DNA of 64,000 bases, from the NCBI RefSeq assembly GCF_058153355.1, contig NZ_CM177019.1; one strand, written 5' to 3'. This document shows, in pieces, positions 3,674 through 64,000 of the stretch. The notes beneath the pieces were generated by a model, which saw only the letters and a list, made by a program, of their open reading frames with translations, did no database searches and was not told the DNA's origin. The translations under genes and the position numbers were made by a program. Every line of letters begins with the position of its first letter. The first letter of the stretch is position 1.

Positions 3674-4621
3674 ATGCAAAATCGGCTGACCATCAAAGAC
3701 ATCGCGCGCTTAAGCGGCGTGGGGAAATCTACGGTTTCCCGAGTGCTGAATAACGAAAGCGGCGTGAGTCAGCGCACGCGCGAGCGCGTGGAAGCAGTGA
3801 TGAATCAGCATGGATTTTCCCCTTCCCGCTCTGCGCGCGCTATGCGTGGGCAAAGCGATAAAGTGGTCGCCATCATTGTTACCCGTCTGGATTCGTTGTC
3901 AGAAAATCTCGCCGTCCAAACCATGCTGCCAGCGTTCTATGAACAAGGTTACGACCCGATCATGATGGAAAGTCAGTTTTCTCCGCAATTAGTTGCCGAA
4001 CATTTGGGGGTGCTGAAACGGCGTAATATCGACGGCGTAGTGCTGTTCGGTTTTACCGGCATAACCGAAGACATGTTAGCCCACTGGCAGTCATCGCTGG
4101 TTCTGCTGGCGCGTGACGCAAAAGGCTTTGCTTCGGTCTGTTATGACGACGAAGGGGCAATCAAAATCCTGATGCAACGGCTGTATGACCAGGGGCATCG
4201 TAATATCAGTTATCTCGGCGTACCGCACAGTGACGTGACGACCGGTAAGCGACGTCACGAAGCCTACCTGGCGTTCTGCAAAGCGCATAAACTGCATCCC
4301 GTTGCCGCTCTGCCAGGCCTTGCGATGAAGCAAGGCTATGAGAACGTAGCAAAAGTGATTACGCCTGAAACTACCGCGTTACTGTGCGCAACCGACACGC
4401 TGGCACTTGGCGCAAGTAAATACCTGCAAGAGCAACGCATCGACACCTTGCAACTGGCGAGCGTCGGTAATACGCCGTTAATGAAATTCCTCCATCCGGA
4501 GATCGTCACCGTTGACCCAGGTTACGCCGAAGCTGGACGCCAGGCGGCCAGCCAGTTAATTGCGCAGGTAACCGGGCGCAGCGAACCGCAACAAATCATC
4601 ATCCCTGCCACCCTATCCTGA
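3674..4621 (+). CDS. treR: Trehalose operon repressor TreR (LacI family)
   Basis: N-terminal helix-turn-helix (TIKDIARLSGVGKSTVSRVLNN) and LacI-type periplasmic-binding fold; start placed at ATG 3674 (315 aa) rather than the ORF-track start 3614. Confidence 0.93.
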   Translation: MQNRLTIKDIARLSGVGKSTVSRVLNNESGVSQRTRERVEAVMNQHGFSPSRSARAMRGQSDKVVAIIVTRLDSLSENLAVQTMLPAFYEQGYDPIMMESQFSPQLVAEHLGVLKRRNIDGVVLFGFTGITEDMLAHWQSSLVLLARDAKGFASVCYDDEGAIKILMQRLYDQGHRNISYLGVPHSDVTTGKRRHEAYLAFCKAHKLHPVAALPGLAMKQGYENVAKVITPETTALLCATDTLALGASKYLQEQRIDTLQLASVGNTPLMKFLHPEIVTVDPGYAEAGRQAASQLIAQVTGRSEPQQIIIPATLS

Positions 4622-4674: not shown

Positions 4675-4739
4675 TTTTTAAATTTTTCCGCGCACTATAT
4701 TCTGCAGCCAACCAAAAATGTCATCTGCCATGGGGCTTT

Positions 4740-6161
4740 ATGATGAGCAAAATAAACCAAACGGATCTCGATCGGTTGATTGAACTGGTCGGCGGGCGCG
4801 GCAACATTGCGACGGTGAGCCACTGTATTACTCGCCTGCGCTTTGTCCTCAACCAACCGGCCAATGCCAGACCGAAAGAGATTGAGCAACTCCCCATGGT
4901 GAAAGGCTGTTTCACCAATGCCGGGCAATTTCAGGTGGTAATTGGCACCAACGTGGGTGATTACTATCAAGCGCTGATAGCGACGACCGGACAGGCGCAG
5001 GTTGATAAAGAGCAGGTGAAAAAAGCTGCCCGGCAGAATATGAAATGGCATGAGCAGTTGATCTCTCATTTCGCGGAGATCTTCTTCCCGCTGCTGCCCG
5101 CGTTGATTAGTGGTGGTTTGATCCTCGGTTTTCGCAATGTGATCGGTGATTTGCCCATGAGCAACGGTCAAACGCTGGCGCAAATGTACCCTTCCCTGCA
5201 AACGATCTACGATTTTCTATGGTTGATCGGTGAAGCGATCTTCTTCTACCTGCCGGTCGGAATTTGCTGGTCAGCGGTGAAAAAAATGGGCGGCACGCCG
5301 ATCCTCGGTATCGTGCTTGGCGTGACGCTGGTTTCCCCACAGTTGATGAACGCTTATCTGCTCGGGCAGCAGCTACCGGAAGTATGGAACTTTGGCATGT
5401 TCAGCATCGCCAAAGTGGGCTATCAGGCACAGGTTATTCCGGCACTGTTAGCCGGGCTGGCGCTGGGCGTGATAGAAACTCGCCTTAAGCGTATCGTGCC
5501 GGATTACCTCTATCTGGTGGTGGTGCCGGTCTGTTCGCTGATCCTCGCGGTGTTCCTCGCCCATGCGCTGATTGGTCCGTTTGGTCGCATGATTGGCGAT
5601 GGCGTTGCCTTTGCGGTGCGTCACCTGATGACCGGCAGCTTTGCCCCCATTGGTGCGGCATTGTTTGGCTTCCTTTATGCACCGCTGGTGATCACCGGCG
5701 TACACCAGACCACGCTTGCTATAGATTTGCAGATGATTCAAAGCATGGGTGGCACGCCAGTATGGCCGCTTATTGCGCTGTCGAATATCGCTCAGGGCTC
5801 CGCCGTGATAGGCATTATCATTTCCAGCCGCAAGAGCAATGAACGCGAGATCTCCGTACCTGCCGCTATCTCCGCCTGGCTTGGGGTCACTGAGCCTGCA
5901 ATGTACGGCATCAACCTGAAATATCGCTTCCCGATGCTGTGCGCGATGATTGGTTCTGGTCTGGCAGGATTGCTATGTGGTCTGAACGGCGTTATGGCGA
6001 ATGGCATCGGCGTAGGCGGCCTGCCGGGAATTCTCTCTATTCAACCGAGCTATTGGCAAGTGTTTGCGCTGGCAATGGCTATCGCCATCATCATCCCGAT
6101 TGTACTCACCTCATTTATCTACCAGCGGAAATACCGCCTGGGTACGCTGGACATTGTTTAA
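4740..6161 (+). CDS. treB: PTS trehalose-specific EIIBC component TreB
   Basis: 473-aa product from ATG 4740 (MMSKINQTDLDRLIELVGG...); N-terminal EIIB domain with the CITRLRF cysteine motif followed by a multi-pass EIIC domain. Confidence 0.95.
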   Translation: MMSKINQTDLDRLIELVGGRGNIATVSHCITRLRFVLNQPANARPKEIEQLPMVKGCFTNAGQFQVVIGTNVGDYYQALIATTGQAQVDKEQVKKAARQNMKWHEQLISHFAEIFFPLLPALISGGLILGFRNVIGDLPMSNGQTLAQMYPSLQTIYDFLWLIGEAIFFYLPVGICWSAVKKMGGTPILGIVLGVTLVSPQLMNAYLLGQQLPEVWNFGMFSIAKVGYQAQVIPALLAGLALGVIETRLKRIVPDYLYLVVVPVCSLILAVFLAHALIGPFGRMIGDGVAFAVRHLMTGSFAPIGAALFGFLYAPLVITGVHQTTLAIDLQMIQSMGGTPVWPLIALSNIAQGSAVIGIIISSRKSNEREISVPAAISAWLGVTEPAMYGINLKYRFPMLCAMIGSGLAGLLCGLNGVMANGIGVGGLPGILSIQPSYWQVFALAMAIAIIIPIVLTSFIYQRKYRLGTLDIV

Positions 6162-32879: not shown

Positions 32880-33803
32880 TCAATAACCATTATTCGCGTT
32901 TAACGGTTTTACCTCTTTTTTAAACGCTTCAATGGTAGATTTATATTTCTCGGAAATCTTTTCTTCGGTATAATTACCATTTGCGGCCAGATTTGCACTT
33001 ATAATCGCTTCCACTTGCTCGGTTATTTCCACTTGTTGGCAACCTGCATTAACCAGAAAATTATAAATAAGAGAGTAATCTTCACCCTGCAAAAAAATAT
33101 AAGAGCCAGTTCGAAATTCCTCATCCCCTCCATAGATTTTAAGAGCAAAGCCCAAAGATTCTATGACCATGGCATAATTTCTATTATTTATTTCCTCGCA
33201 AAAATACCATCCTTCACATTCTTTAATGCTACCTTCTGGCCCTTCAAGTTCAAATTTACCCCGTTTTAATTTGCTTACTACATTCTCCAAATAAGCAGAA
33301 TCGTAAGATAAGTTACCCGCCGCCTTCCGAAAATAACCGTTAATCCTTTCAGGTATGTCAGACTGTTTTTTCTGCAAAATATCATAGGCATACAATCTTC
33401 TATTTTGTGCTAGTGGAAATTCACGGTTTTTAAAGTCTATAAATGAGTTATACTCATTTATTGTTATAGGGATTTCTTCGTATTCAAATCCAGTGCCTCG
33501 CAATGTCATTGTATATTCGGCACCGTTATCTTTAAGGCGGAAGCTGATAAGAAAATTATCCATGGAGTGAACGGTTTCATCTTTTGATGAAAGCACCTGA
33601 TAACTATTTTTATCAATCTGTGTTGCTCTAAGAAAGAACTCCCTTAAAATTAACAGACTATCATAATTCGAAATCCAATCCCTTTTCTTAAATGCATGCT
33701 GAATATTATTAAAGAAATTATTTGAATGTATTTTTGTATGCGATGACTTTACAAATAACTCCACTGCACCAAAAAAATTATTGTGTCTGATCTTGGGTAA
33801 CAT
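32880..33803 (-). CDS. ytfI: Hypothetical protein, YtfI-like (function unknown)
   Basis: 307-aa AT-rich ORF with ATG start and no recognisable domain; position between ytfJ and cysQ corresponds to K-12 ytfI (from memory). Confidence 0.6.
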   Translation of the reverse strand: MLPKIRHNNFFGAVELFVKSSHTKIHSNNFFNNIQHAFKKRDWISNYDSLLILREFFLRATQIDKNSYQVLSSKDETVHSMDNFLISFRLKDNGAEYTMTLRGTGFEYEEIPITINEYNSFIDFKNREFPLAQNRRLYAYDILQKKQSDIPERINGYFRKAAGNLSYDSAYLENVVSKLKRGKFELEGPEGSIKECEGWYFCEEINNRNYAMVIESLGFALKIYGGDEEFRTGSYIFLQGEDYSLIYNFLVNAGCQQVEITEQVEAIISANLAANGNYTEEKISEKYKSTIEAFKKEVKPLNANNGY

Positions 33804-34015
33804 ATGACAACCTTATTATATTTGGTTATTCTATGTCGCCATTAAATATCTTATTAAAGAAGTAAACTATCAAAAAAAGCTCATTATTAAAACATAACTT
33901 ATTAACGTTAGAATATTTACACTTTAAATACAATCCCTTTATATCTATAACTTTTTAGGTTGGAAACAAATCAGGATGGCAGAATCAGGAAATACACTGT
34001 TTCTGCCATATATAT

Positions 34016-34756
34016 TTAATAAATAGAGACTCTGAACCCAGGATTCAGGAACGACTCGCGCGGGGTATAATCCAGCGGTTTACCCTGCCAGTCGTGAACG
34101 TGCGCTCCGGCCGCTGCCGCAACTGCGTGACCGGCAGCGGTATCCCAAATATTAGTTGGCCCGAAACGCGGATAGAGTTGAGCCTGCCCTTCCGCCACCA
34201 GGCAGAATTTCAGCGAAGAGCCGATAGACGTGGTTTGATGTTCGCCAAGCTGTTGCAGATACTCTTTCAGCTCCGCATCCGCATGGGAACGGCTGATCAC
34301 CACCAGCGGCGGGCGCGCATCGCGGACCTGAATCTGCTTGCGTACACCGCACTCTTCTTTCCAGGCTTTGCCGTCTGCCGCGCTGTACATTACGTTCATT
34401 ACCGGCGCATACACCACACCTAAAATCGGTTTGCCGTGGTCGATGAGCGCAATATTAACGGTGAATTCACCATTACGTTTAATAAACTCTTTAGTACCAT
34501 CCAGCGGGTCTACCAGCCAGTAACGCTGCCAGTGTTGACGGACTTCCCAACCGGGAGGATCTTCTTCAGAAAGGACCGGAATATCCGGTGTCAGCGTACG
34601 TAAACCGTCCATGATAACGGTGTGTGCGGCAATATCCGCTGCCGTTACCGGAGAATTGTCCGCTTTGCTGACGACGTCCATCGGTTTCGTCCCGTCGTAG
34701 ACCTGCATAATGGCATCGCCTGCATTCCGTGCAAGCTGGCATACTTGATCTAACAT
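34016..34756 (-). CDS. cysQ: 3'(2'),5'-bisphosphate nucleotidase CysQ
   Basis: 246-aa inositol-monophosphatase-family protein ([22 protein letters not shown]... with DPLDGT motif). Confidence 0.95.
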
Positions 34757-40185: not shown

Positions 40186-40193
40186 TTCGTTCG

Positions 40194-40226
40194 ATCAACG
40201 ATCCTGACATGTACAGGATCGTTGAT
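40194..40226. other. 13-bp perfect inverted repeat (hairpin) at the boundary between ytfE and the accessory operon
   Basis: atcaacgatcctg-acatgta-caggatcgttgat; no flanking T-tract. Confidence 0.4.
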
Positions 40227-40237
40227 TGTTAAGAGGT

Positions 40238-41731
40238 TCAGTCTTTCAATGGACGTAATTCATTGTTGTAACTGGTGTAACTGCCTTCAACGGTAAGTAG
40301 ATTGCCGTTTTCATCAAGATGCGCCGCATTGAGTTGTCGAGTTTCATTACGCCGCTTCGCATCACGTACCAGCCCATCGCCTACGTAATAAATATAGTGG
40401 TCATCATGAGCAAAGGTATCTGATAATTGACCATTGGCGTATTTAAACCACGTCCATTGGCCTTTCAGTTCAAATTGCTCAACCGTGTTTTCATCAATAA
40501 AATACGTAAAGCGATCGTCATGTGCTAAATAATTTAATGGTGTGCCATCGTGGCTTTTATACCACTGCCATTGCCCATTAATATCAAAAATAGTCACATC
40601 ATCGCTCGCAATGAAATAAAATTTATTCCCTATAATATTAACGCCTTCATGTAATTCTTGTTGTGGGTCGGGTAAATGAATAACCGACAGTGTTTTTTCG
40701 ACCCCAGAAACATACTTCACCAGATAGAGCGAATCTTTATATTGCGCCACATTCTTCGTCAGCGGGCGAAAATATTCCGGATCAACATCAGGAATGGTCG
40801 CAACCCGGCAGTCATTGGCACGCCAGGAAACGTCACGCGTCATCCATGTTACTTTATCCCGCTGTAGGTCAAACGTATTTCGGCACTCTTTACCGAACGC
40901 ATAACGTTTCTCCCCGTCCTTATCGCGATAAATCAGCAGGGAACCGGCTATCCAGCGCACAATATGAAAGGTGTCCGGATCGGCGTTGATGGAATCTCCG
41001 TTCACAAAGACCTGCGATTTTGTCCGCCAGATTGTATCCCAGGGTGCGGGATGCCCCCAATTTTCACAAGTGTTTGGCAAATAAAGAATATTCCGTTGGG
41101 CCCAGGGTTTAATGTCAAGAATAGAATATCCTTGCGTACTACCCAACCAGCGTCCCTGAAAGTAAAGATTGCGACGATCTTTCAGTACATCCGCGGAATC
41201 AATTAAATTCATCCTCCCCCCCACCTGTTGCAGCGAATCCATATCGACCTGCTTTTCGCCGTGATTATCATCCGTGCGTTCGCCATCAAAATAGAGGCTG
41301 TCTTTATCAGCGGCAAAACGCCCCCATGCGCGGAATGTTGCGGCATCGACTTTCGGTGTTCCCGGCGGGTTCTGAACTATTTTCCCTGCCCATAAAATAT
41401 GGCGACCATCGGTCAACCAGTCGAAACGCCAACTACCGTTAGTTCTGATATTAGTGCCAGCATCTACCTGAACATAATCATTATTGATATCATCAGGAGA
41501 ATCATATTTATCATCAGTGCCGTTGGGTACGCGGCGAAGTTGCTTAAACTTCACCTGCGATAAATGAATATCCGGAAAATAGAGTCCGTAACCATCACTA
41601 TCTTCAACGATATATTTTGTTCCTTGCCCCCACGGCTGGTAGTAAAACGCAGCAGCAGGCACACCGGAGCAGGCTAGTGAGGAGGTTGAAAATAAAGCCA
41701 GTGCGAGACAAACGGGTTTAATTGGCAACAT
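40238..41731 (-). CDS. Secreted repeat protein, paralogue 1 (DKNYY-like repeats; function unknown)
   Basis: 497-aa product with signal peptide MLPIKPVCLALALFSTSSLA; repeated D-K-x-x-[LIV]-Y-[FY] and A-D-x-x-T/S-F motifs (e.g. VDAATFRAWGRFAADKDSLYFDG); AGGA RBS. Confidence 0.75.
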   Translation of the reverse strand: MLPIKPVCLALALFSTSSLACSGVPAAAFYYQPWGQGTKYIVEDSDGYGLYFPDIHLSQVKFKQLRRVPNGTDDKYDSPDDINNDYVQVDAGTNIRTNGSWRFDWLTDGRHILWAGKIVQNPPGTPKVDAATFRAWGRFAADKDSLYFDGERTDDNHGEKQVDMDSLQQVGGRMNLIDSADVLKDRRNLYFQGRWLGSTQGYSILDIKPWAQRNILYLPNTCENWGHPAPWDTIWRTKSQVFVNGDSINADPDTFHIVRWIAGSLLIYRDKDGEKRYAFGKECRNTFDLQRDKVTWMTRDVSWRANDCRVATIPDVDPEYFRPLTKNVAQYKDSLYLVKYVSGVEKTLSVIHLPDPQQELHEGVNIIGNKFYFIASDDVTIFDINGQWQWYKSHDGTPLNYLAHDDRFTYFIDENTVEQFELKGQWTWFKYANGQLSDTFAHDDHYIYYVGDGLVRDAKRRNETRQLNAAHLDENGNLLTVEGSYTSYNNELRPLKD

Positions 41732-41763
41732 AGCATCATCCTGAAGCTGTTAGCGTGAAGAGG

Positions 41764-42921
41764 TTATTTAAATAAGGGTTTAAGACCGCTCGGGGGTTGC
41801 TTCACCGATGACCAACCTCCCTTACCTAAGTTATAACGCAGCCATTCACCTTGTTGGGCGTGCTCTTTCCCAATTCCAGTCGCTTGTTGAGTGTAAAGCT
41901 GCCCGTCTGTTGATATAAACGTGTTAGTTAATCCCCAACTACCACCTGCTTCAAGTGAGTCGGTGAGATCCTCTGGCTTGAGATTAATCAACTCCCCTTC
42001 GCCCAGGGCGTTGGTTGTTACTTTATAAATTTGGTTCTTATATAAACCGGTATTCCGAACAAACAGATAAAAATATTCCGGATCAACTCCCGCCAGCGTT
42101 TCATAAACACAATCACTACCCGCTGGCGTTGCTTCTTGTTTGAGCCAGGACACAGTCTTCAAACCAATATTAAATGACGCACAACTGTGACTAATATCCT
42201 CCAACTTATAGTCATGCTCACCGCTTTTATCGCGATAAACCAACCGTTCGCCAGGCATCCAACGTTTAATCTGAAAAGTTTTGCGATCGGCGGGCAGTGG
42301 CTTGCCATTAACGATCACCTGCGAATTTGTCAGCACAACAAATTGCAGGGCGGAATCATGCCGCACGATTTGAAATCCATCGGCATGACCCAACCAGCGC
42401 CCTTTATGCCAGAGGCCATTTTTATCACGCAGTAAATTCCAGATGTCCGTCTCTTCCAGCGTTGACATATCCACCTGCTTATCACCGCTATTATCATCGG
42501 TACGCTGGCCGTCAAAATAGATACTGCGTTTATCGGCAGCGAAAGCGCCGAATGCCTGAAAACTGGCAGCGTCGACTTTAGGTTTACCGGGGGGATTTTT
42601 CAGGACTTTGCCTGCCCAAATAACAAAGCGTCCATCGGTGAGCCAGGAATGCTGGCAATCCCCCTTATCATCGCAATCGAACTTATCGGGATTAAAATCG
42701 GACAGTAACCGGCAATCTTGCTTATTAGCTAAATTGGCAATGCGCCAGAGGCGGGAAAAATTAACGTCTGGTAATTCGGAGAGGATCTCATCTTCTTTTC
42801 CCTTCTGTTCGGCAACGTAAACCGTGCCTTTATCATGCTGGCGGTAATAAAAATCCGCGCCCCAGGAAGGTAAAATGGAGAGAGGTAATGCGGCGATTAA
42901 TAACCAACTGCGCTTAACCAT
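41764..42921 (-). CDS. Secreted repeat protein, paralogue 2 (DKNYY-like repeats; function unknown)
   Basis: 385-aa product from ATG 42921 with signal peptide MVKRSWLLIAALPLSILPSWGA; shares long identical or similar blocks with paralogue 1 (WLTDGRxxxWAGKxxxNPPGxPKVDAAxFxAxGxFAADKxSxYFDGxRTDDNxGxKQVDM). The ORF-track N-terminal extension (to 43080) overlapping cycA is rejected. Confidence 0.7.
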   Translation of the reverse strand: MVKRSWLLIAALPLSILPSWGADFYYRQHDKGTVYVAEQKGKEDEILSELPDVNFSRLWRIANLANKQDCRLLSDFNPDKFDCDDKGDCQHSWLTDGRFVIWAGKVLKNPPGKPKVDAASFQAFGAFAADKRSIYFDGQRTDDNSGDKQVDMSTLEETDIWNLLRDKNGLWHKGRWLGHADGFQIVRHDSALQFVVLTNSQVIVNGKPLPADRKTFQIKRWMPGERLVYRDKSGEHDYKLEDISHSCASFNIGLKTVSWLKQEATPAGSDCVYETLAGVDPEYFYLFVRNTGLYKNQIYKVTTNALGEGELINLKPEDLTDSLEAGGSWGLTNTFISTDGQLYTQQATGIGKEHAQQGEWLRYNLGKGGWSSVKQPPSGLKPLFK

Positions 42922-43013
42922 AGTGAACTCTGCAACGAGTGGCAAAGATCCACGGTAAGCTCGCGCCTGAGGGCTGTCTATGATGGTAGATTTTTTTAGG
43001 AATATATAAAGAC

Positions 43014-43035
43014 AAAGGCACCCGCAGGTGCCTTT
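43014..43035 (-). terminator. Rho-independent terminator downstream of cycA
   Basis: aaaggcacc-cgca-ggtgccttt stem with flanking T/A tracts, 20 nt after the cycA stop. Confidence 0.55.
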
Positions 43036-43054
43036 CAGAGTTATAAACGCGGCA

Positions 43055-44458
43055 TTACTTCGCCATGCGTTTTTTACCAATAAACAACCAGCCCAACCCC
43101 AGCGCGATAAACCACAGCGGGGTAACTATCAGCGCCTGGCGAGTGTCATCTTCCAGTGTCAGCAGCACGACCACGAACACAAAGAACGCCATACATACCC
43201 AGCACATCAGCTTGCCGAGCGGCATCTTGTAGATAGACTTCTCATGCAGGTGCGGACGCTGTTTGCGATACACCAGGTATGAGCAAAGGATAATCGTCCA
43301 GACGAACATAAACAGAATCGCGGAAACAGTCGTGATCATCGTGAACGCGCCAATTACACTTGGATTCACATACAACATCACCACGCCGCCAAGCAGACAG
43401 ATACAAGAGAAGGTCAGCCCTTTCGCGGGTACGGCGCGCTTAGAAAGTTTAGCGAACGCTTTCGGCGCAACACCTTCCTGGGCCAGACCAAACAGCATAC
43501 GGCTGGTAGAGAAGACGCCGCTGTTAGCGGAAGACGCCGCAGAGGTCAGCACCACAAAGTTGATTACGCTGGCAGCCGCAGGCAAACCCACCAACACAAA
43601 CAATTCAACAAACGGGCTTTTCTCCGGGACTACTGAACTCCACGGCGTCACGGACATAATCACAATCAGCGCGAAGACGTAGAACATAATGATACGGATC
43701 GGAATGGAGTTAATCGCACGTGGCAGTGATTTCTCCGGATCTTTCGTTTCCGCAGCGGTTGTACCGACCAGCTCAATCCCCACGAAAGCGAAAACCGCTA
43801 TCTGGAATCCGGCAAAGAAGCCACTTAAACCTTTCGGGAACCAGCCGCCGTCATTCCACAAATGCGCGAATGACGCTTCCACACCGGTCGGTGACTGAAA
43901 GTGCATCGCCACCATGACCAGGCCGACGACAATCAGTGACACGATGGCGACAATTTTGATCATCGCAAACCAGAACTCCATCTCACCGAACATTTTCACG
44001 GTGGCGAGGTTAAGCGTCAGCAGCAGCACTATCACCGCCAGCGAGGCGACCCAGTCGGAGAGATCGGGGAACCAGAACTGAGCATAGGCAGTGATGGCCA
44101 CCACGTCCGCCATACCGGTAACCACCCAGCAGAACCAGTAGGTCCAGCCAGTGAAATATCCCGCCCATGGCCCCAGTAAATCGGAAGCGAAGTCACTAAA
44201 AGATTTGTATTCCAGATTCGAAAGCAGCAATTCCCCCATTGCCCGCATCACGAAAAAGAGCATAAAACCGATGATCATATAAACGAAGATGATCGACGGT
44301 CCGGCAAGGCTGATTGTTTTACCGGACCCCATAAACAACCCCGTACCAATGGCCCCACCAATGGCAATAAGCTGAATATGTCGGTTTGTGAGATTGCGCC
44401 GTAGCGACTGTTCAGCCGGAGCCTGATCATCGGCAACGACTTTTACCTGATCTACCAT
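43055..44458 (-). CDS. cycA: D-serine/D-alanine/glycine:H+ symporter CycA (APC family)
   Basis: 467-aa product MVDQVKVVADDQAPAEQSLRRNLTNRHIQLIAIGGAIGTGLFMGSG... Confidence 0.95.
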   Translation of the reverse strand: MVDQVKVVADDQAPAEQSLRRNLTNRHIQLIAIGGAIGTGLFMGSGKTISLAGPSIIFVYMIIGFMLFFVMRAMGELLLSNLEYKSFSDFASDLLGPWAGYFTGWTYWFCWVVTGMADVVAITAYAQFWFPDLSDWVASLAVIVLLLTLNLATVKMFGEMEFWFAMIKIVAIVSLIVVGLVMVAMHFQSPTGVEASFAHLWNDGGWFPKGLSGFFAGFQIAVFAFVGIELVGTTAAETKDPEKSLPRAINSIPIRIIMFYVFALIVIMSVTPWSSVVPEKSPFVELFVLVGLPAAASVINFVVLTSAASSANSGVFSTSRMLFGLAQEGVAPKAFAKLSKRAVPAKGLTFSCICLLGGVVMLYVNPSVIGAFTMITTVSAILFMFVWTIILCSYLVYRKQRPHLHEKSIYKMPLGKLMCWVCMAFFVFVVVLLTLEDDTRQALIVTPLWFIALGLGWLFIGKKRMAK

Positions 44459-47085: not shown

Positions 47086-47877
47086 ATGAAGTCAACACGT
47101 CCTGTTGCTGTCATCACTGGAGCCGCACGTGGTATTGGAAAGGGCTGTGCACTGGAACTTGCGCGTGGCGGATTTAATCTGCTGATTAATGATCGTCCGG
47201 ATGCCGACAGCGTAGAAAAATTACATGCCACACAACAAGAATGTCTGGCGGAAGGCGTGGAAGTCATTTGCTTCCCTGCCGATGTCGGCGATCTCTCCTT
47301 GCATGAAGAGATGCTCGACGCGGCGCAAAACCAGTGGGGGCGTCTGGACTGCCTGCTCAATAACGCCGGGATTTCAGTGAAAAAACGCGGTGACCTCCTC
47401 GACCTCGAACCAGACAGCTTCGACCAAAACATTGCCATTAACACCCGTGCGCCGTTCTTCCTTGCTCAGGCATTCAGTAAGCGATTACTGGCACAGCCGA
47501 AACCGGAAGCAGAACTGCCGCACCGCTCGATTATTTTTGTCAGTTCCATAAACGCCATCATGCTGGCGATGAATCGCGGCGAATATACCATTGCCAAAAC
47601 TGCCGTCTCCGCCGCAGCTCGCCTGTTTGCCGCTCGCCTTTGCAATGAACAAATTGGCGTTTATGAAGTGCGCCCTGGCCTAATCAAAACCGATATGACC
47701 ATTCCGGCAACGGCTTATTACGACGAACTGATTGCTAAGGGGTTAGTGCCGTGGGGACGTTGGGGTTATCCGGCTGATATTGCCTCAACGGTCCGCGCGA
47801 TGGCGGAAGGCAAACTGATTTACACCTGTGGTCAGGCGGTCGCCATCGACGGCGGCTTAAGTATGCCGCGCTTCTGA
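47086..47877 (+). CDS. Short-chain dehydrogenase/reductase (SDR) family oxidoreductase
   Basis: 263 aa; TGAARGIGKG cofactor motif, NNAG, catalytic YTIAK; RBS AGAGGG. Confidence 0.85.
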   Translation: MKSTRPVAVITGAARGIGKGCALELARGGFNLLINDRPDADSVEKLHATQQECLAEGVEVICFPADVGDLSLHEEMLDAAQNQWGRLDCLLNNAGISVKKRGDLLDLEPDSFDQNIAINTRAPFFLAQAFSKRLLAQPKPEAELPHRSIIFVSSINAIMLAMNRGEYTIAKTAVSAAARLFAARLCNEQIGVYEVRPGLIKTDMTIPATAYYDELIAKGLVPWGRWGYPADIASTVRAMAEGKLIYTCGQAVAIDGGLSMPRF

Positions 47878-49524: not shown

Positions 49525-51066
49525 ATGCGTAAGATAACAACCGCCGAGACACTGGCGGCGCAAATTCAGGACGGCGCAACCATTGCCATTAGCGGTAATG
49601 GCGGTGGCATGGTGGAAGCGGACCATATTCTGGCTGCTATTGAAGCGCGTTTCCTGCAAACCGGACACCCGCGCGATCTGACATTAATCCACTCACTGGG
49701 CATTGGCGATCGCGACTGCAAAGGCACTAACCGCTTCGCTCATGCAGATATGCTCAAACGCATCATTGCCGGACATTTTACCTGGTCGCCCAAGATGCAG
49801 GATCTGGTGAAAAACAATGCTATTGAAGCCTACTGCTTCCCTGGTGGCGTAATTCAGGCACTGCTGCGGGAGATCGGTGCCGGACGTCCAGGGCTTTTTA
49901 CCCACGTTGGGCTGGGATCGTTTGTTGATCCGCGCAACGGCGGCGGTAAGTCGAACGCCAGCACCACTGAGGATCTGGTAGAACTGATTGAAATCGACGG
50001 TGAAACCAAACTTCGTTATCGCCCTTTCAAAGTGGACTACGCGATTTTGCGTGGCACTTATGCCGATCCGCGTGGCAACGTCAGCCTCGAAGAAGAGGCG
50101 ATTGATATGGATAGCTATTCCATGGCGCTGGCAGCACACAACAGCGGCGGCAAAGTGTTCGTACAGGTGCGCGATGTGCTGGAAGCTGGTGCCATTGAAC
50201 CACGCCGGGTCAAATTACCGGGCATTCTGGTTGATGGCATCGTTGAACACCGCGAACAACCGCAAACCTATCTTGGCGGTTACGACCTGACCATCAGCGG
50301 TCAGCATCGCCGTCTAAGTTCTAACGACGCTATTGAACTGGTTAGTCATCCGGTGCGCCGCCTGATTGCCCGTCGGGCAGCACGCGAACTGGTGGCTGGC
50401 GCTTCAACCAACTTTGGCTTTGGTATTCCGGGCGGTATTCCAGGAGTAGCGCTGCGCGAAGGCGTGCCTTATCAAAGTTTATGGCTGAGCGTAGAACAGG
50501 GCGTACATAACGGCATGATGCTGGATGATGCTCTGTTCGGCTGCGCCCGTAACGCCGATGCCATTATTCCATCACTCGATCAATTCGAATTCTACAGTGG
50601 CGGAGGGATCGATATCACCTTCCTCGGCATGGGAGAGATGGATCAGTACGGTAACGTCAACGTCTCCCATCTCAATGGCAATCTCATTGGCCCCGGCGGA
50701 TTTCTCGAAATTGCGCAAAACGCCCGTAAAGTGGTGTTCTGCGGCACGTTCGACGCCAAAGGTAGCAAGATTGATGTAACACCAGATGGCTTGCATATTG
50801 CCCAGTCAGGTCAAATCCCTAAACTGGTTACCCAGGTGGAAAAAATCACTTTTAGCGCCGCCTACGCACAGCAAAGCGGTCAGGAAGTGTTGTATATCAC
50901 TGAACGTGCAATATTCCAGTTAACGGCAGAAGGCGTTGAATTAATTGAAATCGCACCAGGTGTGGAGATTGAGCGCGACATTCTGCCATATATGGCTTTC
51001 CGTCCAATTATCAATCAGCCACGCCTGATGGAAAGTAGCCTGTTTACGCCGATGGAGGATGCATGA
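49525..51066 (+). CDS. Fused alpha/beta family-I CoA-transferase (acyl-CoA:acetate/3-ketoacid CoA-transferase-like)
   Basis: 513 aa; resembles fused short-chain acyl-CoA transferases (YdiF type); stop overlaps the next start (ATGA). Confidence 0.75.
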   Translation: MRKITTAETLAAQIQDGATIAISGNGGGMVEADHILAAIEARFLQTGHPRDLTLIHSLGIGDRDCKGTNRFAHADMLKRIIAGHFTWSPKMQDLVKNNAIEAYCFPGGVIQALLREIGAGRPGLFTHVGLGSFVDPRNGGGKSNASTTEDLVELIEIDGETKLRYRPFKVDYAILRGTYADPRGNVSLEEEAIDMDSYSMALAAHNSGGKVFVQVRDVLEAGAIEPRRVKLPGILVDGIVEHREQPQTYLGGYDLTISGQHRRLSSNDAIELVSHPVRRLIARRAARELVAGASTNFGFGIPGGIPGVALREGVPYQSLWLSVEQGVHNGMMLDDALFGCARNADAIIPSLDQFEFYSGGGIDITFLGMGEMDQYGNVNVSHLNGNLIGPGGFLEIAQNARKVVFCGTFDAKGSKIDVTPDGLHIAQSGQIPKLVTQVEKITFSAAYAQQSGQEVLYITERAIFQLTAEGVELIEIAPGVEIERDILPYMAFRPIINQPRLMESSLFTPMEDA

Positions 51067-53135
51067 GTCAGCTTGATGACACCCTCCTTGATGCGCTGAC
51101 GCACGTCACTTTCCCGAAGGGTTTTGTGTCAGCAGAGCCAGCGTCAATTGTCACGGTTGAAGATGTCGATTACCCGATCTGGCAAGTTGATGCGCTAGTC
51201 GTTGGTAGCGGCGCGGCAGGGCTGCGCGCAGCGGTTGAACTTAAGCGCCGCCAGCAAAATGTGCTGATCGCCTCCGCCGGGTTATATATGGGGACATCGG
51301 CATGTTCTGGTTCCGATAAACAGACGCTGTTTACCGCCGCTACCGCGGGCAACGGCGATAACTTCGCCAAACTGGCGGAAGCACTGGCGAGCGGTGGGGC
51401 GATGGATCACGACACCGCTTATGTCGAAGCGGTAGGTTCTCTGCACACTCTTGGCGGGTTGCAATATCTTGGTCTGGAATTACCGGAAGATCGCTATGGC
51501 GCAATTCTTCGTTATCAAACCGACCATGACGAAGCCGGGCGAGCAACCTCGTGTGGGCCGCGTACTTCTCGCCTAATGGTGAAAGTATTGCTGGAGGAAG
51601 TGCAGCGTCTTGCCATACCACTACTGACCAGTGCAACGGTGATTAAGCTCCTGCATCAGCACGGAGAGAATGGCGAAGATCGCGTTGCGGGGGCTATTCT
51701 CGCAACCGGTTCCCGCGCCTATAACCCCTGGGGGCTGGCTATTGTGACGGCGCCCAATGTGGTACTGGCAACGGGCGGACCGGGCGAGCTTTATCGCGAC
51801 AGTGTTTATCCACATAAATGCTTCGGCTCGCTGGGACTGGCACTGGAAGAAGGTTTGACGCTAACCAATCTGACCGAAAGCCAGTTTGGTATAGGCACGC
51901 CGCGCAGCACGTTTCCGTGGAATTTGTCCGGCACCTATGTACAGGTGATCCCATATATCTATTCCGTGGATGCCGGGGGCAACGAGTATAACTTCCTCGC
52001 AGATTACTATCGCACCACCCAGGAGCTGGCTTCAAACATCTTCCGTAAAGGCTATCAGTGGCCGTTTCACGCCACACGAGTGATGGATTTTGGCTCCAGC
52101 TTGTTAGATATGGCAGTAGCGCAAGAGCAGCAATCAGGACGTCAGGTATTTATGGATTTCAATCGCAATCCTGAACCTGTGCCGGGTGACCTGCCGTTCT
52201 CATTAGATCGACTGGACGACGACGTTCGCGCGTATCTGGAAAATAACGACGCTCTGGCACCATCGCCCATCGAACGACTGCAACGAATGAATCCGCTGTC
52301 TATCTCGCTGTATAAGATGCACGGTTACGATCTCACCACGCAGCCATTGCAGTTTGCCATGAATAATCAGCATATAAATGGCGGCATTGAAGTGGATATC
52401 TGGGGGCAAACCTCCCTGCCCGGATGTTTCGCCGTGGGGGAAGTTGCTGGCACACACGGCGTCACTCGCCCTGGTGGTGCGGCATTGAATGCCGGGCAGG
52501 TTTTTGCTGTTCGTCTGGCACGTTTTATTGGTTGCACGCAAAAACGTAATATTGATGGAGATATAGCACAGCTGGTAGCTCCGGCACTGGCTTCTATAAG
52601 AGAGATCATTACTCAGGCGCACGATAACGGGACCGGGATGCCGTTGTCGGTTGTGAGGGAAAAAATTCAGGCACGAATGTCTGACTACGCGGGATTTATT
52701 TGCCATGCCGATAAAGTCCGACGCGCCACTCGTGATGCCCTGCTATTGAACGAATTTGTGCAACGGCATGGATTGGCAATCAAACATGTGGGTGAAGTTG
52801 CCGAGCTATTTATGTGGCGGCATATGGCGCTGACTTCTGCCGCGGTATTAACACAATTAACGCATTATATTGATGCTGGTGGTGGTAGCCGTGGGGCGCG
52901 TATGGTTATTGATCCACAAGGCAAATGCCTACCACAAACTCGTCGCGGCGCAAAAGAAGAATGGCGTTTTCGCTCTGAACTCGCTGAAGACAAAAATCAC
53001 AAATTAACAATTCAATATTCGCAAGGTTCTTTTATTACCGAAGTAAAGTCTTTACGTATGCAACCGTGTATTAACGGTATTTACTTTGAAAAAAACTGGC
53101 CAGACTTTTTAAAGGGAGACATTTACACACAGTAA
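51063..53135 (+). CDS. FAD-dependent oxidoreductase (fumarate-reductase/succinate-dehydrogenase flavoprotein-like superfamily)
   Basis: 690 aa; N-terminal dinucleotide-binding motif DALVVGSGAAGLRAAVEL and a second glycine-rich region (VLATGGPGELY). Confidence 0.75.
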   Translation: MSQLDDTLLDALTHVTFPKGFVSAEPASIVTVEDVDYPIWQVDALVVGSGAAGLRAAVELKRRQQNVLIASAGLYMGTSACSGSDKQTLFTAATAGNGDNFAKLAEALASGGAMDHDTAYVEAVGSLHTLGGLQYLGLELPEDRYGAILRYQTDHDEAGRATSCGPRTSRLMVKVLLEEVQRLAIPLLTSATVIKLLHQHGENGEDRVAGAILATGSRAYNPWGLAIVTAPNVVLATGGPGELYRDSVYPHKCFGSLGLALEEGLTLTNLTESQFGIGTPRSTFPWNLSGTYVQVIPYIYSVDAGGNEYNFLADYYRTTQELASNIFRKGYQWPFHATRVMDFGSSLLDMAVAQEQQSGRQVFMDFNRNPEPVPGDLPFSLDRLDDDVRAYLENNDALAPSPIERLQRMNPLSISLYKMHGYDLTTQPLQFAMNNQHINGGIEVDIWGQTSLPGCFAVGEVAGTHGVTRPGGAALNAGQVFAVRLARFIGCTQKRNIDGDIAQLVAPALASIREIITQAHDNGTGMPLSVVREKIQARMSDYAGFICHADKVRRATRDALLLNEFVQRHGLAIKHVGEVAELFMWRHMALTSAAVLTQLTHYIDAGGGSRGARMVIDPQGKCLPQTRRGAKEEWRFRSELAEDKNHKLTIQYSQGSFITEVKSLRMQPCINGIYFEKNWPDFLKGDIYTQ

Positions 53136-53227
53136 TTTTCAATATTTACTCTGTACCTGATTTTTATTGCCTATTACATGGAAATACCAACAACCAGGGT
53201 TTATTAATATAATTAAAAGGTTTAAAA

Positions 53228-54505
53228 ATGAATAAAATAAAGAATTATCGATGGCATATGATTGCCCTCGTATGCTTTATCACTGTAATCAATTATCTGG
53301 ACAGAACGGCGTTAGGTATTGCGGCTCCAACGATTATGGAGACAACCGGAATAACCAAAGAACAATATTCATGGATTGTCAGTGCATTCCAGTTGGCCTA
53401 TACATTGGGGCAACCGGTAATGGGCTTCTTTATTGATACCGTGGGTCTGAAGTTAAGTTTTGCGATATGTGCCGCAATCTGGGGCCTGGCGACAATGGGG
53501 CATGCCTTGACAGGAACATGGTCAGGTCTGGCATTTATGCGCGCCCTGATGGGTTTCAGCGAAGCATCGGCAATTCCTGCGGGTGTAAAAACCGCATCAA
53601 CATGGTTCCCGGCAAAAGAGCGTGGCGTGGCGACAGGTGTTTTCAATATGGGCACCTCACTCGGCGCGATGCTTGCTCCACCGTTGATTGCCTGGTGCAT
53701 TATGTTTCATAGCTGGCAATTTGCGTTTATTGTCTCAGGTAGCCTTGCTTTACTCGCGGCTTTATTTTGGTTCTTTTGTTATAAAGATCCAAAAGATGCT
53801 AAACGCCTTTCTGATGAAGAGCGCCACTATATTGAGTCTGGGCAAGAACAGCATCTTAAAACAGATAAGAAAGAAAAAACGTCAATCAAGCATATCCTCA
53901 GCCAACGTAATTTCTGGGGGATTGGCATCGCGCGTTTTCTCGCTGACCCGGCATGGGGAACCATTAACTTCTGGGTACCGATTTTCTTCGTCGAAACGCT
54001 GCATTTTAGCCTGAAAGAAATTGCCATGTTCGTCTGGCTGCCTTTCCTGCTGGGCGATCTCGGCTGTTTAGCCAGTGGTTTTGTCGCGAAGTTCTTCCAC
54101 GATCGCGGCGTGAGTTTAATTAACTCACGAAGAATTACCTTCACTATTGCAGCCGTCATTATGATGACGATTGGTCTGGTGAGTATTGTCGAAAATCCCT
54201 ACATCGCCGTATTACTGATTAGCATTGGCGCATTCTCGCATCAATGTCTTTCTACTGTAGCAGCAACTCTGGGCGGTGACCTATTCAAAAAAGACGAAGT
54301 AGCTACCGCAGTGGGTATGGCAGGAGCCTGTGCGTGGAGCGGTCAGTTGATTTTCAACCTGTTCATCGGGGCATTCGTTCACATTATCGGCTTCGCGCCG
54401 TTCTTTATTGCCCTGGCTTTCTTTGACATTATTGGTGCTATTGCGTTGTGGACGCTTATCAAAGTTAAAGATGAAGAACCACAAGTACAGTTAGCTACCC
54501 ACTAA
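53228..54505 (+). CDS. MFS transporter, anion:cation symporter (ACS) family, ExuT-like (hexuronate / sugar-acid type)
   Basis: 425 aa, about 12 TM helices; N-terminus (MNKIKNYRWHMIALVCFITVINYLDRTALGIAAPTIME...WFPAKERGVATGVFNMGTSLGAMLAPPLIAW) closely parallels hexuronate-transporter family proteins. Confidence 0.8.
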   Translation: MNKIKNYRWHMIALVCFITVINYLDRTALGIAAPTIMETTGITKEQYSWIVSAFQLAYTLGQPVMGFFIDTVGLKLSFAICAAIWGLATMGHALTGTWSGLAFMRALMGFSEASAIPAGVKTASTWFPAKERGVATGVFNMGTSLGAMLAPPLIAWCIMFHSWQFAFIVSGSLALLAALFWFFCYKDPKDAKRLSDEERHYIESGQEQHLKTDKKEKTSIKHILSQRNFWGIGIARFLADPAWGTINFWVPIFFVETLHFSLKEIAMFVWLPFLLGDLGCLASGFVAKFFHDRGVSLINSRRITFTIAAVIMMTIGLVSIVENPYIAVLLISIGAFSHQCLSTVAATLGGDLFKKDEVATAVGMAGACAWSGQLIFNLFIGAFVHIIGFAPFFIALAFFDIIGAIALWTLIKVKDEEPQVQLATH

Positions 54506-54520
54506 TTATTTTAAATAAAA

Positions 54521-54549
54521 ACGCTATAATTGAGGTTATGGCGTTTTTA
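54521..54549 (+). terminator. Rho-independent terminator after the MFS transporter gene
   Basis: acgctataa-ttgagg-ttatggcgt stem followed by ttttt. Confidence 0.5.
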
Positions 54550-54774
54550 AAGAAGCTTGAGTTATCGAACCTCGCTTACCAACGCGTTGTCAGTCATCTC
54601 CCCCCTCCCTGGTGCATCGTTATATCCGTGATGAGCGATTTTTGATATTAATATCTTTCACCATCCGCTATTTTCACCACTTCAGAAAACAAACTTATTT
54701 TTATTAATATCAATTCTTTTTCTTTGAACATTCAACTGCGATATTTGTAAAAATATTAAACAGGCAACAATAAA

Positions 54775-55569
54775 ATGACATTACCAACAACTATTTATTC
54801 ATTCCCCGCATATTTACCTCGTTTTTCGTCCACCGACAAACCAGCAAAACTAAAATTTCATCAATACGCACGCGCTACATTACTGTCAAATCGTGGAAGA
54901 GATCATAATTGCGATGGCAGACGTACTGTTGAGATCCACAAACTAGATCTCTCAGACTGGCAAGCATTCAATAAGCTAGCGACGAGGTGTAATACTTACG
55001 ATGGAATAACAATGAATGGTGATAATTCTTTTGGATGGAACCATGAAGCTACATTAGATAATATTCACGCCCAGAAATACAATAAAGCTTACGCGGGTGC
55101 GCGGTTAACCGCAGAACTGAAATATTTATTGCAAGATGTCGAATCCTTCGAACCCAACAGTAAATACACAATACACGAAGTGGTTTTGGGACCTGGTTAT
55201 GGTACTCCAGACTATACCGGCCAAACGATAGGATACGTTGTAACCCTTCCTGCCCAAATGCCTAATTGCTGGTCATCTGAACTACCAACAATCGATCTTT
55301 ATATCGACCAACTTCGCACTGTTACAGGCGTTTCTAATGCCCTCGGATTCATCATTGCTGCATTGCTAAACGCGTATTCTGATTTACCCCATGATTTGAA
55401 AATTGGTCTACGTTCCTTATCAAATTCAGCCGCAATCTACTCGGGTTTAGGTTTCGAGCGAGTGCCGCAGGACCGAGACATAAGGAGTGATCGTATGCAT
55501 CTAACGCCAGCAAACCATCCTGACTTATGGACACAAGAGAATGGTGAATGGATCTACTTGCGAAATTAA
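54775..55569 (+). CDS. yjfZ: Hypothetical protein YjfZ (function unknown)
   Basis: 264-aa ORF with ATG start, preceded by a very AT-rich 270-bp region; no recognisable catalytic motif. Confidence 0.8.
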   Translation: MTLPTTIYSFPAYLPRFSSTDKPAKLKFHQYARATLLSNRGRDHNCDGRRTVEIHKLDLSDWQAFNKLATRCNTYDGITMNGDNSFGWNHEATLDNIHAQKYNKAYAGARLTAELKYLLQDVESFEPNSKYTIHEVVLGPGYGTPDYTGQTIGYVVTLPAQMPNCWSSELPTIDLYIDQLRTVTGVSNALGFIIAALLNAYSDLPHDLKIGLRSLSNSAAIYSGLGFERVPQDRDIRSDRMHLTPANHPDLWTQENGEWIYLRN

Positions 55570-55591
55570 TGCCTGACGAAAAATAGAAAGC

Positions 55592-55619
55592 AAAACGCCG
55601 ACCAATGGTCGGCGTTTTT
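55592..55619. terminator. Bidirectional rho-independent terminator (yjfZ on plus strand; rpsF-priB-rpsR-rplI operon on minus strand)
   Basis: aaaa-acgccgacc-aat-ggtcggcgt-ttttt. Confidence 0.65.
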
Positions 55620-55639
55620 ACGTCTCGTTGAATAACGAA

Positions 55640-56101
<462 letters not shown>

Positions 56102-57746: not shown

Positions 57747-57755
57747 ATGCGCCAT

Positions 57756-58307
57756 TCAACGAATAACGACTTCCGGATCCGGCTCATGAGTAATGCGATT
57801 ACGTAAGTCGCGGCGCATAATTTCTATTATCCAGAACCAGAAAATGTGCCCAAGGATTTCAGATGCATATTCGTCAAAAGGCAATTGAGTGAGCGGCGGC
57901 GTTAAATTCAGCGCCGGGCAAAATATACCGTGGACTGCCACTGTCACAATAAGCCCTGCTAATATCCCCTGCCATAATTTCACTTTCGGGAAAATTTCCG
58001 CGACCACACAATACCCTATCGCAAAAACCAGTGAGAAAATGATATGCGTCACCATCACCGGGTTGATAATATGTTCCGAGAATGTATACACAGTTTGGGT
58101 TGGGTCGATCCCTAAATAATCCCGTAGAAAGATATACGGCGGATTAAACTCATCGCGACCACCGGAAAATGTGCGCGGTGGCAAGGGAACTTCCGCTCCC
58201 CATTTAACAAATGCTGAAATAATTCCTGAAAGTACACCCACAAGTAACGCAACGCCATAACGGCGACGCTGCGGATCCGTTCTGACAAACAATCCGTTGA
58301 TAGCCAT
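57756..58307 (-). CDS. YagU-like inner-membrane protein (DUF1440)
   Basis: 183-aa product [47 protein letters not shown]...[26 protein letters not shown], strongly similar in pattern to the YagU family. Confidence 0.8.
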
Positions 58308-58403
58308 AAAAACACCTGTTGTTTATACGATTTTTTAACAGAAACGGCCCCGGAATCAGACCAATTACATCCCGCAGGAGGTAATAATTCCGGGGCGCAC
58401 TGC

Positions 58404-61412: not shown

Positions 61413-63164
<1,752 letters not shown>

Positions 63165-64000
63165 ATGAGTAAAGTGAAAAGTATCACCCGTGAATCCTGG
63201 ATCCTGAGCACTTTCCCGGAGTGGGGTAGCTGGTTGAATGAAGAAATTGAACAAGAACAGGTAGCTCCTGGCACATTCGCGATGTGGTGGCTAGGCTGCA
63301 CCGGGATCTGGCTGAAATCGGAAGGTGGCACCAACGTTTGCGTCGATTTCTGGTGTGGTACTGGCAAACAAAGTCACGGTAACCCACTAATGAAACAGGG
63401 TCACCAGATGCAGCGCATGGCTGGCGTGAAAAAACTGCAGCCAAACCTGCGCACCACCCCGTTTGTTCTTGATCCGTTTGCGATTCGCCAGATCGACGCA
63501 GTACTGGCAACTCACGATCACAACGATCATATCGACGTCAACGTCGCTGCTGCCGTGATGCAGAACTGCGCTGATGACGTGCCATTTATCGGGCCGAAAA
63601 CCTGCGTGGATTTGTGGATTGGCTGGGGTGTGCCGAAAGAACGTTGCATCGTGGTCAAACCGGGCGATGTCGTTAAAGTGAAAGACATTGAAATTCATGC
63701 CCTTGACGCGTTTGACCGTACTGCACTGATCACTTTGCCTGCCGATCAAAAAGCGGCTGGCGTACTGCCAGACGGCATGGACGATCGCGCGGTAAACTAC
63801 CTGTTCAAAACGCCGGGCGGTACCCTGTATCACAGTGGCGATTCCCACTACTCTAACTACTATGCGAAGCACGGTAACGAGCATCAGATCGACGTGGCAT
63901 TAGGTTCATACGGTGAAAACCCACGTGGTATCACCGACAAAATGACCAGTGCTGATATCCTGCGTATGGCAGAAGCGCTGAATACAAAAGTGGTTATCCC
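63165..64000 (+). CDS. ulaG: L-ascorbate-6-phosphate lactonase UlaG (metallo-beta-lactamase fold), 5' portion; continues beyond the window
   Basis: ATG at 63165 opens a frame to the window end ([51 protein letters not shown]...HDHNDHID). It is missing from the ORF track because no stop codon lies in the window. Confidence 0.9.

Follow-up and report, generated by a model that had tools for sequence, protein, structure and literature searches.

Does yjfZ, a low-GC gene lying directly downstream of a catabolic gene cluster, belong with that cluster, how might the AT-rich DNA in front of it govern its expression, and what kind of protein does it encode? We addressed these questions in a 64,000-nucleotide stretch of DNA, referred to here in its full length as the window. 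By sequence comparison, the window is E. coli chromosome; positions 54400 to 55700 share 99.9% identity with strain EC42405, and 5425 of 5426 complete E. coli genomes contain matches to parts of this segment. ORF calling on the window placed an ATG-start ORF of 264 aa at positions 54775 to 55569 of the forward strand, confirming the ORF and coordinates of the initial annotation, and Pfam DUF2686 (PF10887) matched the product from end to end (E value 1.7e-151; 503 bits against a gathering cut-off of 25; YjfZ residues 5 to 264 aligned with profile positions 17 to 285), identifying it as a member of the DUF2686 (YjfZ/YjiC) family. This CDS carries the name yjfZ in annotated E. coli genomes. Its GC content is 42.4%, versus 40.8% for the whole yjfZ module and 50.8% for the window. 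The module is about 1 kb long (roughly 54550 to 55590), its edges being the terminator of the upstream gene and the bidirectional terminator shared with rplI:

53228 to 54505, forward strand: MFS transporter gene, upstream of yjfZ and final member of a TetR-regulated catabolic cluster with six genes
54516 to 54549, forward strand: intrinsic terminator of the MFS gene, with a 15-bp stem followed by UUUUU
54775 to 55569, forward strand: yjfZ CDS, 264 aa, DUF2686, with a predicted GNAT-like fold after an N-terminal extension
55592 to 55618, both strands: bidirectional intrinsic terminator with a 12-bp stem, serving yjfZ (forward) and rplI (reverse)
55640 to 56089, reverse strand: rplI, downstream of and convergent with yjfZ, last of the rpsF-priB-rpsR-rplI group

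Terminators on both sides of yjfZ

RNA folding gave the hairpin at 54516 to 54549 a ΔG of -15.6 kcal/mol (z score, -5.73), with none of 200 shuffled sequences equally stable, and the hairpin at 55592 to 55618 a ΔG of -20.5 and -21.1 kcal/mol with z scores of about -5.3 on either strand. The latter terminator is kept in all locus variants in the alignment, yjfZ positive and yjfZ negative alike. The matches from an Rfam scan were all below threshold and fell on the terminator hairpin. With hairpin terminators at both flanks, yjfZ is thus monocistronic and insulated on either side.

yjfZ and the catabolic cluster are close to mutually exclusive

The initial annotation described yjfZ as the conserved neighbour of the accessory catabolic cluster, and in the window it does lie directly downstream of the cluster's MFS gene on the same strand. 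Comparison of strains revealed four arrangements of the locus:

Type A: TetR - cluster - MFS - yjfZ - rplI (this window and EC42405)
Type B: truncated TetR (ytfA) - yjfZ - rplI (K-12, O157, and 042)
Type C: cluster - MFS - rplI, without yjfZ (STEC409 and BL21)
Type D: cluster - TRAP transporter - rplI, without yjfZ (ML35)

yjfZ was found in 2538 of the 5426 complete E. coli genomes and was missing in 53%. The MFS-to-yjfZ junction of type A occurred in 289 genomes, making the arrangement in the window a minority one (about 5% of genomes), while the type B junction between the truncated TetR gene and yjfZ, with the cluster deleted, occurred in 2228. The cluster's FAD-oxidoreductase gene was present in about 3130 of the 5426 genomes. 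Accordingly, yjfZ accompanies the cluster in about 9% of cluster-bearing genomes and the cluster accompanies yjfZ in about 11% of the yjfZ carriers, so that either one comes close to excluding the other. This quantified population structure of the yjfZ locus is new here, and the counts correct the view that yjfZ and the catabolic cluster next to it go together. A conserved neighbourhood is refuted by the 289 versus 2228 junctions, by STEC409, BL21, and ML35, all of which carry the cluster without yjfZ, and by the terminator between the two, which is predicted to insulate yjfZ from the cluster.

The same evidence bears on the idea of a functional tie, in which YjfZ would, for example, modify the substrate of the TetR-regulated cluster. 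The adjacency and shared strand seen in the window speak for such a tie, but we consider it very improbable, and the co-occurrence counts have already largely refuted it: yjfZ stands beside the cluster in only 289 of the approximately 3130 cluster-bearing genomes, the cluster is gone from 2228 of the 2538 genomes with yjfZ, a strong terminator stands between the MFS gene and yjfZ, and the paralog yjiC has unrelated surroundings, with iraD and uxuR as its neighbours.

The ytfA-yjfZ spacer of K-12 (positions 3902 to 4003 of the K-12 locus) holds a remnant of about 100 bp that is 83% identical to positions 47175 to 47276 of the window and derives from the first cluster gene, encoding a 3-ketoacyl-ACP reductase. 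A type A-like ancestor therefore gave rise to type B through deletion. In STEC409 and ML35, the yjfZ module is cleanly missing between about 54509 to 54550 on one side and 55584 to 55587 on the other. The module borders showed neither repeats nor mobility genes, and transposon- or integrase-mediated insertion of the module was rejected on that account.

The alleles at this locus are of uneven relatedness. yjfZ (54775 to 55569) is 100% identical to its EC42405 counterpart, and the FAD-oxidoreductase gene of the cluster (51063 to 53135) is only 96.5% identical to the same genome and 90 to 95% identical to nearly all others. This suggests a mosaic locus, either through recombination within it or because the cluster allele is rare among complete genomes.

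Two further strain-variable segments were observed elsewhere in the window. A 584-bp segment between yjfY and ulaF (57747 to 58330) is missing from K-12, STEC409, and ML35 and is unannotated in EC42405; its reverse-strand ORF (57756 to 58307; 183 aa) matches Pfam DUF1440, a small membrane-protein family (E value, 3.9e-45). A segment of about 2.9 kb adjoining cycA (40187 to 43067) is missing at the corresponding place in K-12, and the 438-aa reverse-strand ORF there (41764 to 43080) gave only a weak, sub-threshold match to the DKNYY family in Pfam.

A two-paralog family and the target of the "YjfZ" qPCR assay

In the searches run, YjfZ and YjiC (Pfam DUF2686) form a two-paralog family restricted to Escherichia/Shigella. 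YjiC (b4325; 276 aa) is 42% identical to YjfZ over 226 aa. Exhaustive phmmer searching of 1.84 billion representative proteins returned YjfZ fragments together with fragments 35 to 62% identical, the latter belonging to the paralog yjiC; one repeat protein from this search was set aside as a false positive. Every protein recovered by a profile search of 5.8 billion proteins was a DUF2686 member from E. coli, Shigella, or E. albertii. When one genome from each of 100,044 species was scanned, two loci emerged, i.e., the E. albertii yjiC ortholog, which occupies the same uxuR-side locus as in E. coli, and a 1283-bp contig from a "Collinsella sp." MAG (JAIJJM010000835.1), whose encoded protein is 96% identical to YjfZ. 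This contig almost certainly reflects contamination of the bin with E. coli DNA. No YjfZ-family match was found in phages, and the "plasmid" matches were records of 0.37 to 4.9 Mb, several of them chromosome sized, which suggests chromosomal sequence filed as plasmid.

YjiC is like YjfZ in its DUF2686 assignment, predicted fold, organization as a single-gene low-GC unit, and restriction to Escherichia. It differs in its locus, between iraD/ytiD and uxuR, in being 12 residues longer on the N-terminal side, in having an ortholog in E. albertii, and in carrying His where YjfZ has Tyr222. It is also the commoner paralog, with a qPCR probe sequence placing yjiC in at least 4399 of the 5426 genomes, compared to 2538 for yjfZ. 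The yjiC gene of strain SK1144 (4695 to 5481 of its locus sequence) is annotated as frameshifted, and several DUF2686 entries in the databases are fragments of truncated or frameshift-like appearance. Each of the two paralogs is therefore dispensable in certain lineages. The sole phenotype that we found in the literature for the family is that of a yjiC transposon mutant, biofilm deficient and uncomplemented, in one atypical enteropathogenic E. coli (EPEC) strain (PMC4100040), and queries with b4204 and DUF2686 returned nothing functional.

A published "YjfZ" qPCR assay for water quality describes YjfZ as a highly conserved E. coli signature protein (PMC11057252). The primers and probe of this assay all lie inside yjiC (1466 to 1579 of O157:H7 PV15-279), delimiting exactly the stated 114-bp amplicon, and the forward primer had no match in the yjfZ-bearing window even with up to three mismatches allowed. 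The assay thus actually targets yjiC. This matters to those who use or interpret the "YjfZ" qPCR. The genome counts also show that yjfZ cannot serve as a universal marker of E. coli.

The AT-rich upstream region and H-NS

The intergenic gap between the MFS gene and yjfZ measures 269 bp (54506 to 54774) and has three parts, the first of which holds the MFS-gene terminator. The other two are as follows:

54550 to 54606, forward strand: distal spacer of about 57 bp, about 51% GC, with the C-rich run CTCCCCCCTCCC; not AT-rich
54607 to 54774, forward strand: AT-rich putative regulatory region of yjfZ, 168 bp, 29.8% GC overall and 25.6% in the last 125 bp

Taken together, the 225 bp from 54550 to 54774 are 35.1% GC, which is within the lowest 2.2% of all 225-bp segments of the window. 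GC content is, however, uneven along this stretch, and the initial observation of about 225 bp of very AT-rich DNA with A/T tracts is therefore true of the proximal 170 bp or so only, not of the first 57 bp. Six A/T tracts of 4 to 5 bases each are found in the proximal part, at 54639, 54671, 54686, 54698, 54717, and 54749. Homology to the K-12-type locus starts within or just after the distal spacer, at about 54581 to 54607, with blastn breakpoints at 54607 against K-12 and 54581 against FDAARGOS_1288. Other AT-rich stretches in the window are located immediately 5' of the MFS gene within the cluster (52951 to 53359; 28% GC), at 33497 to 34084 (24% GC), and at 62815 to 63215 (28% GC).

The 168-bp proximal region is common to the seven alleles compared, from both major locus types, and is strongly conserved. 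A 237-column alignment of the seven upstream alleles, which also takes in divergent sequence further upstream, had a mean column identity of 91%. Such conservation is expected if yjfZ's own promoter and regulatory sites sit there, and on this basis 54607 to 54774 should hold the yjfZ promoter. A consensus sigma-70 scan gave no match of at least 9/12 upstream of yjfZ; by eye, we read weak candidate elements in TTGAAC (54724 to 54729) and in the extended -10-like TGtAAAAAT (54746 to 54754). The 24- to 35-aa ORFs in the 269-bp gap are not conserved between locus types, and a small upstream antitoxin or leader ORF was accordingly rejected.

In a genomic SELEX study, the K-12 yjfZ/ytfA spacer is listed with both an H-NS site and an RpoD-holoenzyme site (Shimada et al. 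2014, PMC3946193). That spacer includes the same 168-bp region as the window. The same pattern is seen at yjiC, where the CDS is about 40% GC and the DNA upstream of it 28% GC. The high-affinity H-NS motif TCGATAAATT had no match in 54607 to 54774 with up to two mismatches and was only slightly enriched across the window. A literature search on yjfZ returned neither expression data nor data on repression or de-repression. Silencing of yjfZ by H-NS is a reasonable reading, given the low GC content, the AT-rich upstream DNA, the SELEX site in K-12, and the parallel with yjiC; it is partly published, its basis being in vitro binding of the K-12 allele together with the AT-rich upstream region. 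H-NS bound on the AT-rich 168 bp would probably hold yjfZ expression low.

With H-NS-silenced AT-rich genes of E. coli, yjfZ shares a GC content below that of the genome, AT-rich promoter-proximal DNA (29.8% and 25.6% against 50.8% GC), strain-variable presence, and reported H-NS binding for the K-12 allele (PMC3946193). It differs from horizontally acquired genes of this kind in having no detectable donor lineage. The promoter had been proposed to be xenogeneically silenced. The AT-rich proximal DNA, the low-GC gene, and the K-12 in vitro H-NS site agree with that proposal. As to its "xeno" component, the searches described above recovered homologs solely from E. coli, Shigella, and E. albertii, with none from phages or true plasmids, and a foreign origin is therefore not demonstrable. 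An origin of yjfZ within Escherichia is equally possible.

Conservation and selection

Conservation between the YjfZ and YjiC paralogs is unevenly distributed, with 25% of positions invariant overall, 8% in residues 1 to 39, 67% in residues 40 to 48, and 61% in residues 173 to 200. The three segments are as follows:

54775 to 54891, forward strand: N-terminal extension, residues 1 to 39, Ser/Thr/Pro rich, 8% invariant, pLDDT 27 to 29
54892 to 54918, forward strand: family signature RGxxHNxDG, residues 40 to 48, just before predicted β1, 67% invariant
55291 to 55374, forward strand: residues 173 to 200 (IDLYIDQLRTVTGVSNALGFIIAALLNA), predicted β4-loop-α3, the structural equivalent of GNAT motif A

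The last of these is the conservation peak of the family (IDxYIDQxxTVxGVxNxxGFxxAALLNA). Among alleles of yjfZ itself, the ORF was intact in all seven compared, and pairwise dN/dS ratios (Nei-Gojobori) were 0.12 to 0.46 in 21 of 21 pairs, with dS reaching 0.11. The gene is under purifying selection, somewhat relaxed. At least 80% of its length is kept in 2523 of the 2538 carrier genomes.

These data need to be set against the alternative of a decaying, functionless orphan ORF that persists only through being silent. The gene's absence from 53% of complete E. coli genomes is compatible with decay, as are the lack of homologs outside Escherichia, a promoter that is weak by consensus, the absence of any function or phenotype for yjfZ in the literature that we found, the frameshifted yjiC of at least one strain, and the many fragmentary family members in databases. 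Decay would nevertheless sit poorly with dN/dS ratios well below 1 in every allele pair, with near-full-length retention in almost all carriers, and with paralog conservation that is structured and concentrated in fold-relevant segments, and we regard it as improbable. We conclude that yjfZ is a genuine, monocistronic, lineage-restricted accessory gene of E. coli, previously known as a y-gene but uncharacterised.

A probable GNAT fold for DUF2686

The protein had been described as having no obvious domain, which holds at the sequence level. Pfam searches of 15 family members at E values up to 10 returned DUF2686 only and no GNAT match; for YjfZ there was no match in NCBIfam, in PADLOC, or, by phmmer, among PDB sequences, and only one chance match in PHROGs (E value, 0.19). 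Structure prediction and remote homology searching had been suggested as a way forward. The PDB profile search gave two chance matches (E value, about 1), but fold searches with the predicted structures of YjfZ and YjiC retrieved GNAT folds only. The predicted topology of the AlphaFold models, β1-α1-α2-β2-β3-β4-α3-β5-α4-β6-β7, is that of a GNAT domain, and long structural alignments were obtained to LasI, EsaI, and FeeM. Both models were built on very shallow alignments of 11 to 15 sequences, effectively three to four lineages, and their confidence was low for YjfZ (pLDDT 43) and only moderate for YjiC, for which four of five models fell below 40. TM-scores to GNAT structures were modest, at 0.4 to 0.54 of target length. 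Comparison of DUF2686 with a RimI profile by hhalign gave a probability of 0.2, both profiles being very shallow (Neff 1.9 and 1.4) and the RimI one built from sequences at least 83% identical only. With two paralogs and two search programs converging, a GNAT fold is the likely assignment.

Compared with members of the GNAT superfamily, i.e., 2qml (BH2621), SpeG, AAC(6')-Ib, and RimI, the YjfZ model has the same order of secondary structures, and its most conserved segment falls at the position of the acyl-CoA pyrophosphate site. It differs from them in having no detectable sequence similarity, in an insertion between α1 and α2, and in an extra N-terminal extension of about 40 to 50 residues containing RGxxHNxDG; nothing in the structural neighbours corresponds to the N-terminal 40 residues or to this motif. 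The [QR]xxGx[GA] signature was absent by regular-expression search from all intact YjfZ and YjiC sequences, the single match lying in a divergent stretch of one sequence, away from the β4-α3 loop. In its place, the motif A position carries the invariant TVxGVxNxxGF. Y222, at the position of the usual general-acid Tyr, is His in YjiC. Given the absence of the signature and this substitution, YjfZ is best filed as a non-canonical GNAT variant rather than as a classical acetyl-CoA N-acetyltransferase. New here is the probable placement of DUF2686 in the GNAT fold, with a cofactor loop that is non-canonical.

Proposed function

In GNAT proteins, the pyrophosphate of acyl-CoA is bound by motif A, the β4-α3 junction, with the acyl group placed between β4 and β5. 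The corresponding stretch of YjfZ has two invariant glycines, and two acidic residues, D174 and D178, lie on β4. In the models, these features speak for an active transferase that has kept its donor-binding site, and D174 and D178 could act as general base. YjfZ would then consist of an unstructured N-terminal extension of about 40 to 50 residues followed by a divergent GNAT-type α/β fold, and it would most likely be an acyl-group transferase. The acyl donor would bind in the cleft of the conserved β4-loop-α3 segment (TVxGVxNxxGFxxAALLNA) and might be either acyl-CoA bound in an unusual manner or another activated acyl carrier. Overall, we lean, at somewhat better than even odds, towards yjfZ being an accessory gene that would encode a GNAT-type acyl transferase and would be silenced by H-NS in vivo.

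Alternatively, YjfZ may be GNAT-like and no acyl-CoA enzyme, be it a pseudo-enzyme, a ligand- or protein-binding module, or an enzyme with a different donor. AHL synthases, FeeM, and Fem-type proteins, all of GNAT fold, use donors such as acyl-ACP or aminoacyl-tRNA. We judge this alternative rather unlikely.

GNAT toxins of type II toxin-antitoxin systems (KacT/7byy, TacT, and AtaT) are among the closest known systems, and YjfZ and YjiC might be orphan toxins of the TacT/AtaT/KacT type, tolerated through H-NS silencing. Toxins of this type acetylate aminoacyl-tRNA. Against such a role, there is no antitoxin gene and no conserved ORF in the 269-bp upstream gap; in place of the adjacent, co-transcribed antitoxin (RHH or similar) of TacAT, AtaRT, and KacAT, the upstream neighbour of yjfZ is either the terminated MFS gene or the truncated TetR gene. 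We give the toxin reading a slim chance.

A bolder proposal, which we put forward as a long shot, is that DUF2686 represents a genus-restricted, non-canonical GNAT acyltransferase that departs from the usual use of acetyl-CoA, or else a silenced orphan GNAT toxin. As an example of the former, YjfZ may be an N-acyl-amino-acid or AHL-synthase-like enzyme, dependent on acyl-ACP or acyl-CoA, whose product is a small acylated signal or surface-modifying molecule. The following would be in keeping with a non-canonical acyltransferase: motif A has been lost, long structural alignments link the predicted fold to LasI, EsaI, and FeeM, and the yjiC transposon mutant is biofilm deficient (PMC4100040).

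Apart from the fold assignment, the population structure, and the qPCR mismatch, the yjfZ locus is an ordinary one. YjfZ and YjiC are among the remaining K-12 y-gene products without an assigned function or fold. The probable GNAT assignment makes DUF2686 testable, through acyl-donor binding, the acidic residues of β4, and the RGxxHNxDG motif, and it provides a rationale for de-repression and overexpression work on yjfZ and yjiC.
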